Shown: one piece after another, positions 53,306 to 54,208 of the stretch
Layout: each line of letters begins with the position of its first letter
Numbering within the stretch: position 1 is the stretch's first letter
Origin: Amphiscolops sp. MND2022
Taxonomy: Eukaryota
DNA: 64,000 nucleotides
Direction of reading: 5' to 3'
Assembly (NCBI GenBank): GCA_964187785.1
Contig: OZ076409.1
Span: 42,038,001 to 42,102,000, forward strand
Made by a program: the position numbers and the translations under genes
The notes under the pieces: model-generated
Database searches by the model: none
The model's input: only the letters and a program-made list of their open reading frames with translations
What the model was told of the DNA's origin: nothing

Positions 53306-54208
53306 CTAGGGTTTAGAAAAAAGGGGTCTGTCAAATTGAATTTGGATTATGACGGAGTCATTGTTTAGGAAGGCTTCTCTAAAGTTTACCAGGAGTTTTG
53401 TGTGCGCGATGAAGTCTTCTCTCATCAGTCCTGGGAGTGTGTAGTCGTTCTTGTGCGGGTCTTCATACTCTTCTGTTTTGGAGGGATAGGGAAAGGAGAT
53501 GGACCATTTGTTGTTCTTGTCTTTTTGGTCTATGATTGAGACGATCAATTGTTGCTCGAAAGGCCACGTTCGTGGGAGAGTGAAGTCGCTGGGGTGTAGA
53601 TCACAAGAAATTGAGGAATGGGTTCCGCGGAAGATGTTGGCGCCATAAGGGAATAGTCTGAGGGATATTTTGCAGCCGGTTAGGTGGGTAGTGTAGATAG
53701 GGCTAGTGAAGCTATTTTTGATGTTGTTCAACGCATCATTCGGGGAGGTCTTTGCTTTTCTGTATAGTGTGGAAAAAGCGGGTATGTGCCAAAGGATGGG
53801 TTCACCACTTCTTGCGTCTAATACGTTGGTTTTGTTGAGTAGGGCGCCTTGAAACTTGATTGTCGCTTGTAGATTGGATATTGTGAGTTCCAAGTGATTA
53901 CATTTAGTCCGCGTTTCTTCTGCCAAGTTTTGGAGTTGTTTCATTTCACTAGCAAACTTTGTTCTAGGCTGTTTTATGTCGGTTATGGGAAACGATTTCC
54001 TTAGGATCGGGGTTACCTTTTCACTTTGTGGGCTAGTTGAGACTTCCAGTTCAGCGATCCATTTGTTCAATCTTTTGATTCCCTCGAGTGTCTCGAGGTC
54101 ATCTTTATTCTCTGTCCTGGATAGAGGTGGCCAGTCGTTAGCTTTGGGGAAGGAAGGAGTGCTTTTTGGGATGAAGGGGATAGCGTCTGGGTTTAGCCTC
54201 CGATTCAT
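53306..54208 (-). CDS. TRAF-like protein (PAM2 motif, coiled coil, MATH/TRAF-C domain; no RING), 300 aa
   Basis: GEPILWHI...FTSPIYT...GCKISLRLFPYG...RGTHSSI...WPFEQQLIVSIIDQ...FLNNDSVII follows the TRAF-C consensus; heptads upstream; N-terminal LNPDAIPFIP. Confidence 0.85.
   Translation of the reverse strand: MNRRLNPDAIPFIPKSTPSFPKANDWPPLSRTENKDDLETLEGIKRLNKWIAELEVSTSPQSEKVTPILRKSFPITDIKQPRTKFASEMKQLQNLAEETRTKCNHLELTISNLQATIKFQGALLNKTNVLDARSGEPILWHIPAFSTLYRKAKTSPNDALNNIKNSFTSPIYTTHLTGCKISLRLFPYGANIFRGTHSSISCDLHPSDFTLPRTWPFEQQLIVSIIDQKDKNNKWSISFPYPSKTEEYEDPHKNDYTLPGLMREDFIAHTKLLVNFREAFLNNDSVIIQIQFDRPLFSKP

Follow-up and report, generated by a model that had tools for sequence, protein, structure and literature searches.

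The window, by which we mean the whole stretch of 64,000 nucleotides analysed here (Amphiscolops sp. MND2022, assembly GCA_964187785.1, contig OZ076409.1, positions 42,038,001 to 42,102,000 of the forward strand), contains an env-bearing Ty3/Gypsy element of about 17.8 kb in which a TRAF gene is the last gene. Along the minus strand, the element reads LTR, gag, protease, pol (RT, RNase H and integrase), small ORFs, tandem repeats, env, orfX, TRAF, purine tract and LTR. The gag, protease and 5' LTR of this TRAF-bearing unit lie just past the window edge and were read on L031. The features, in window positions, are as follows:

60004 to 63999, minus strand: pol, with RT, RNase H and integrase in Gypsy order
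57564 to 58293, minus strand: two small conserved accessory ORFs, without Pfam match, dN/dS 0.03-0.19
57065 to 57533, no strand assigned: tandem repeats of about 167 nt, between the small ORFs and env
54839 to 56986, minus strand: env, a 715-aa fusion glycoprotein (Pfam Monjiviricetes_fusion, E 3.4e-31)
54205 to 54807, minus strand: orfX, 200 codons, with no in-frame ATG here, dN/dS 0.05-0.19
53306 to 54208, minus strand: captured TRAF ORF, 300 aa from the first ATG, a single open frame
54167 to 54196, minus strand: PAM2-like motif L-N-P-x-A-x-x-F-x-P at aa 5-14 of the TRAF ORF, a predicted PABP MLLE binder
Layout of the TRAF ORF: PAM2-like motif, aa 5-14; helix, 35-57; coiled-coil helix, 79-127; TRAF-C/MATH, 139-291
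53192 to 53203, minus strand: polypurine tract, short and G-rich, recognised from its sequence
51700 to 53191, minus strand: LTR, 1,492 bp, with TG...CA ends and a 6-bp terminal inverted repeat
48067 to 51699, minus strand: second, truncated tandem unit, with a PBS-like TGG stretch, leader, gag (49209-50669) and protease

The LTR at 51700 to 53191 is common to two tandem units, being the 3' LTR of the TRAF unit, where it is 99.5% identical to the 5' LTR, and the 5' LTR of the second unit, which breaks off within protease near 48085. The preliminary description of this DNA had placed the ORF last before the polypurine tract, and the purine tract at 53192-53203, followed by the LTR, bears this out. 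A target-site duplication of 4 bp was found at the copy at C1:36.7 Mb, and none at the tandem copy of the window. The assignment to Ty3/Gypsy with env rests on LTRs, a PBS-like stretch, a PPT, a TSD (in one copy) and gag followed by PR-RT-RH-IN and then env. Elsewhere in the window, we observed a separate Gypsy element at 583-13832 (near-identical LTRs of about 2.2 kb, zinc-knuckle gag, a 1,610-aa pol and no env-sized ORF), a decayed LTR element at 26019-32516, a DDE_1 transposase ORF at 36361-37266 and a queuine tRNA-ribosyltransferase exon at 38758-39543. An antisense ORF of 218 codons lies at 58793-59449 on the plus strand, and its C-terminal part is kept at 40-66% in other subfamilies of clade A, the group of cargo TRAFs to which that of the window belongs.

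Hydropathy gave env a signal peptide and a C-terminal hydrophobic segment, and no env relatives were found in viral contigs. For orfX, there was no Pfam match and no Atlas match at 0.9. In the window, the orfX stop and the TRAF start share the sequence ATGA, and such an overlap is present in three of four clade-A subfamilies; a pyrimidine-rich, AG acceptor-like site lies upstream of orfX in all six elements read. These two features suggest that TRAF may be expressed through splicing of a sub-genomic RNA and stop-restart translation at the orfX/TRAF overlap. Neither orfX nor TRAF occurs in a more distantly related Gypsy with env (RT 44%; L037:6930-9912, L240 and L241), which suggests that env was likely acquired before TRAF. 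The post-env slot of that element is occupied by a 464-aa ORF without Pfam match.

Searching the animal's own genome (G000) with the TRAF ORF gave at least 132 matches (131 scored of 507 candidates). Among the matches listed, 68 cover at least 255 residues; by hand count, 52 of these carry no internal stop and 16 have stops, so the decay of the ORF that the preliminary description had proposed to look for affects a minority of the full-length copies listed. Partial matches make up 64 of the 132 listed, and about 16 of these lack the N-terminal two thirds. These roughly 16 listed matches resemble a deleted derivative, read in one copy (L045-L046; G000:C12:25.73 Mb), which keeps LTRs and pieces of env but no more of TRAF than its final third; such derivatives have multiplied too. 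At the other extreme are 19 near-identical copies (98-100%), in all of which the ORF is open, a 5' LTR lies about 15 kb upstream and the LTR pairs are 98.8-100% identical, with left flanks that differ in all 17 copies compared. The TRAF-bearing element has transposed very recently. Across these 19 young copies, 11 of the 21 distinct changes are non-synonymous.

The clade-A subfamilies are about 67, 58 and 36% identical to the window TRAF, and the env-orfX-TRAF slot, ahead of the LTR, was present in five of the six clade-A elements read, the sixth being a deleted derivative. With the Pfam TRAF model, the own genome yielded 150 scored loci of 440 candidates; 144 of these lack a stop, in a set that favours intact copies. 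When 30 further MATH loci were read, 28 came directly after env-orfX and split into clades B and C. All four B/C elements that were read at greater length contain gag, pol and env, and three of three tested have paired LTRs. TRAF identity among clades A, B and C is 21-30%. RT differs far less between them, so either TRAF has changed at about ten times the rate of RT, or there was more than one capture. A single cargo clade of A, B and C is not recovered in the free tree and is not rejected by the AU test (p 0.30). The proteins P0029, P0030, P0032, P0035, P0044 and P0058 are sister to clade A and would represent cargo in another species; P0035 had no match in G000 at 1e-40.

The TRAF cargo is under purifying selection. 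Between subfamilies, dN/dS (NG86) was 0.16-0.19 in four pairwise comparisons, the check among copies that had been proposed at the outset, and 0.13-0.28 for the MATH part; the values are rough because dS is above 1 and near saturation, the most distant pair being saturated across the whole ORF. The env gene is intact and constrained, with dN/dS of 0.04-0.07 (NG86). These values bear on the reading that TRAF is a functionless passenger whose frame is open merely from the youth of its copies. The 19 closest copies are indeed very young, and derivatives without a whole TRAF multiplied as well, but a dN/dS of about 0.18 at dS >1, together with frames that stay open across subfamilies at 35-67% identity and clades at 21-30%, makes a passenger hardly credible.

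In the TRAF ORF, Pfam MATH_2 matched aa 139-291 (E 8.9e-12) and TRAF-mep_MATH matched at E 1.3e-10, both above the curated cut-off, and the Pfam search found no RING or zf-TRAF, domains that the control TRAFs do show. All 21 PDB sequence matches were TRAF2/3/4/5 or a TRAF. The AlphaFold model (mean pLDDT 76) shows two helices, 35-57 and 79-127, ahead of a beta-sandwich; helix 79-127 reaches pLDDT 80-96 and has a heptad pattern at 88-118, consistent with a TRAF-N coiled coil directly before TRAF-C. Among 48,161 chains, the closest structure was TRAF1 (5h10; Z 14.1, rmsd 3.5, 181 aligned), ahead of TRAF3 (Z 13.7) and TRAF6 (Z 11.6), a TRAF match favoured by the folding alignment of 75 rows, which includes canonical TRAFs. 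In the viral fold library, iridovirus TRAFs were the top matches. Pfam, PDB matches and the AlphaFold model therefore agree with the earlier account of a coiled coil plus TRAF-C/MATH domain without RING or zinc fingers, and the MATH fold, which that account had wanted checked by HMM and structure, was found by both. Helix 35-57 and the N-terminal PAM2-like motif are features absent from it. TRAF1 trimerises via its coiled coil (PMC4858697), and by analogy the coiled coil of the cargo TRAF may form a trimer.

The best host locus for the donor subfamily is a single one, at G000:C3:90.87 Mb (70% to P0088). It is a gene of four coding exons with GT-AG borders, and the 30 kb read around it contained no element genes; a RING-like match 22 kb upstream (E 0.42) was not exon-like and was rejected. 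The cargo reads through two donor intron positions, beside and inside TRAF-C. A distinctive coiled-coil segment is common to clade B and host exon 2, and clade A is about 29% identical to the donor. In a tree of 57 rows, from which none was dropped and whose bootstrap was not fully settled, cargo clades A, B and C, the TRAF copy of a palindromic DNA element (described below), P0064, the host gene and its acoel orthologs form one clade (99/98), outside which fall 20 canonical TRAFs and two further TRAF-like loci of the host. The named donor orthologs are those of the acoels Convolutriloba macropyga and Symsagittifera roscoffensis, which points to an acoel as the probable host. The earlier idea of an intronless captured host gene thus holds, since the donor subfamily has been found and its introns are absent from the cargo. 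In the suggested tree with host TRAFs, the cargo nests with an intron-containing host gene, apart from the canonical TRAFs. The donor appears to be an acoel-specific, RING-less TRAF subfamily distinct from the canonical TRAFs, and we infer that the capture went through a spliced mRNA. That a host gene was captured and then maintained by selection is, in our judgement, highly probable.

The full-length donor orthologs P0198 and P0203 (482 and 512 aa) contain no RING or TRAF zinc finger, and a profile that detects the RING and zinc-finger exons of the C10 TRAF at E 1e-11 or better found no such exon in some 40 kb upstream of the C3 gene. As donor and orthologs are RING-less, the missing RING was inherited and the element deleted nothing. 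The preliminary description had derived a dominant negative from the loss of the RING, and this part of it does not stand, as the full-length orthologs of the donor have neither RING nor zinc fingers.

At the alignment columns that we take to be the receptor-groove hot spots (polar pocket, serine finger and hydrophobic pocket), only the beta-3 Arg is kept in the cargo. The Asp, Phe and serine-finger positions are altered already in the donor and are variable among clade-A subfamilies, so no partner can be named. The receptor-binding hot spots of TRAFs are described in PMC4858697. According to the accessible text of PMC12849515, TLR, MyD88, IRAK and NF-kB are absent from acoels, and their means of defence without TLR/NF-kB still has to be explained; TRAF goes unmentioned there. 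Our searches of G000 found no TNF, TNFR or Rel domains, blanks that come from searches without a positive control and are weak because NFAT-type domains, which acoels are reported to have, escaped the Rel search as well. The host gene set includes a RIG-I-like helicase, two BIR loci and a canonical RING-TRAF (C10:42.09 Mb), whose MATH exon was not found. The RIG-I-like helicase (L243-L244; G000:C2:45.17 Mb) has a C-terminal regulatory domain, and its upstream region is filled with transposons. A role of the cargo against RLR-type or cell-death signalling is possible.

These data also bear on the proposal that the element deleted the RING from a canonical TRAF and so made a dominant negative of TNFR/TLR/NF-kB signalling. 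The cargo has no RING or zinc fingers and retains the coiled coil, as such a decoy would, and the canonical RING-TRAF of the host could in principle be poisoned. The RING-less donor clade, however, largely refutes this proposal, the canonical groove residues are not kept, and a decoy of TLR/NF-kB, as first envisaged, is unlikely because TLR, MyD88, IRAK and NF-kB are reported missing in acoels (PMC12849515). We consider the deletion of a RING from a canonical TRAF very unlikely.

The naturally RING-less donor architecture, kept in the cargo, would suit a protein that switches on the donor pathway, whether for stem/germ-cell survival or proliferation or for timed death and release. TRAF1 regulates positively or negatively (PMC4858697), ORF111L of ISKNV binds TRADD and induces apoptosis (PMC3352826), and the prominence of iridovirus TRAFs among the viral fold matches points in the same direction. 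Against activation, clade A retains only about 29% identity to the donor and has a rebuilt groove, which is ill-suited to simple mimicry. Activation is distinctly unlikely in our assessment.

The donor TRAF subfamily also occurs in a palindromic DNA element of G000 (L126:1-7855, L123, L129, L133 and L141), where it lies between inverted arms. The arms are at least 3 kb long and 99% identical (three of three tested), and the element has small ORFs without Pfam matches, one of which contains an H-x-H motif that we presume to be HUH-like. About 27 TRAF matches at 48-56% in a separate own-genome search belong to this element. The L126 copy keeps the last MATH intron of the donor, so this DNA-element copy serves as a natural control when an RNA route is proposed for the retroelement capture. 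A metagenome contig (L145:1-17302, 17.3 of 39 kb) is gene-dense and intron-free and resembles a large DNA virus, with genes for HSP70, a protein kinase, a BIR-RING IAP, a MAM protein, an endonuclease-family protein and three MATH proteins. Its protein P0064 falls in the acoel TRAF clade, and the gene lies beside the IAP and two more MATH genes. By its gene content, L145 looks like a virus-like contig.

At the N-terminus of clade A, six PAM2-like positions and a DWPP motif are invariant across eight sequences that are elsewhere 41-59% identical to that of the window, and the PAM2-like motif is carried by 28 of 30 clade-A loci. Pfam PAM2 scored the motif at E 0.027 and 14.6 bits, below the cut-off of 20, and pLDDT around it is low, as in a disordered region of the AlphaFold model. 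In shuffled sequences, it fell within the first 20 aa in 15 of 200,000 cases, for a PAM2 pattern that was picked after inspection of the sequence. Among 215 fetched proteins, the motif is limited to clade A and its sister P0035. It is absent from the donor and from clades B and C, so not all carriers need it. The super-PAM2 peptide has the same L/N/P/A/F/P spacing, including the Phe critical for MLLE binding (bioRxiv 2021.02.07.430161). The own genome has two MLLE genes (G000:C5:28.33 Mb and C7:39.51 Mb), and a predicted complex of the N-terminal 40 residues with a host MLLE, run without alignments, scored 0.29 against a mark of 0.34, a value that we weigh neither for nor against binding. Judging from its sequence, the clade-A motif somewhat more probably binds an MLLE domain than not.

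Such binding might serve the RNA life cycle of the element, with TRAF as a trimerising scaffold whose three PAM2 motifs recruit PABP to element RNA, granules or particles and with no part in signalling. The invariance of the PAM2-like and DWPP motifs beside a hypervariable receptor groove fits this reading, as does the trimerisation of TRAF1 by its coiled coil (PMC4858697). Yet clades B and C retain TRAF without the motif, constraint on the MATH part (dN/dS 0.13-0.28) equals that on the rest of the protein, and the presence of the same subfamily in a DNA element and a virus-like contig points to signalling. A purely RNA-directed scaffold is therefore unlikely.

Considering these results, a host-manipulating accessory role of the cargo TRAF is likely. 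The explanation that we find best, and to which we give an even chance, is that of a trimeric accessory adaptor with a PABP-binding front end that blunts the defence or death response of the host. According to this model, a host TRAF1-like adaptor gene would have been copied without introns into an env-bearing Gypsy element and then kept by selection. The predicted partner of its PAM2-like front end is poly(A)-binding protein, the coiled coil would trimerise the adaptor, and TRAF-C and the coiled coil would engage host signalling partners, so that the defence or death response of the cell would be blunted. In an acoel, the target would not be TLR-MyD88-NF-kB, and would rather be a RIG-I-like pathway, IAP/cell-death signalling or the host TRAF network.

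Accessory genes that counter host defence are known from complex retroviruses, and to our knowledge invertebrate LTR elements rarely hold a traceable one. Here, one genome shows donor, intron loss, selection and recent activity together, with well over 200 matches to TRAF-bearing mobile copies versus the four host TRAF-like loci found. A host gene repeatedly captured by parasites is a concrete entry to acoel defence without TLR/NF-kB. It is conceivable, though doubtful, that acoel defence or cell death runs via a lineage-specific RING-less TRAF stolen by three unrelated kinds of parasite (retroelement, DNA element and large DNA virus), with clade A as a PAM2-TRAF adaptor that couples the pathway to PABP. 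If this is true, the stolen TRAF would point straight at the core of acoel immunity.

Our searches of the open-licence literature brought up neither an LTR element with a TRAF nor a protein that fuses PAM2 to TRAF, and a word search of the main text of PMC13524379 found no acoels and no TRAF. Iridoviruses are known to encode TRAFs (PMC3352826), and one gene of a MELD virus is labelled TRAF-like in a published figure (PMC8502044). Mammalian TRAF1, the best structural match to the cargo, likewise consists of a coiled coil and TRAF-C without RING; identity in the match is 17%, the cargo descends from an acoel-specific RING-less subfamily that is not necessarily orthologous to TRAF1, and it differs in its altered groove, its PAM2-like N-terminus and its encoding by a retroelement. 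ORF111L of the megalocytivirus ISKNV is also a host-derived TRAF in a parasitic genome and, at 296 aa, is close to the cargo in size. Unlike the cargo, it is described with an N-terminal RING (PMC3352826), is TRAF2-like and belongs to a dsDNA virus of fish, which have TNFR signalling. Paip2 and the super-PAM2 peptide share the spacing and the critical Phe with the cargo motif, which differs in being fused to a TRAF and in scoring below the Pfam cut-off, and whose binding is predicted. The Vesta, Juno and TelKA elements of bdelloids have extra ORFs after pol, typically on spliced messages, and what they carry is env, GDSL lipase or DEDDy exonuclease, with no TRAF in the main text (PMC5408684). 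Finally, env-bearing Gypsy and BEL elements with chuvirus-type glycoproteins took their env from a negative-strand RNA virus family (PMC10084718, PMC7642597). Unlike those LTR elements, the acoel element combines a signalling adaptor with several conserved accessory ORFs.
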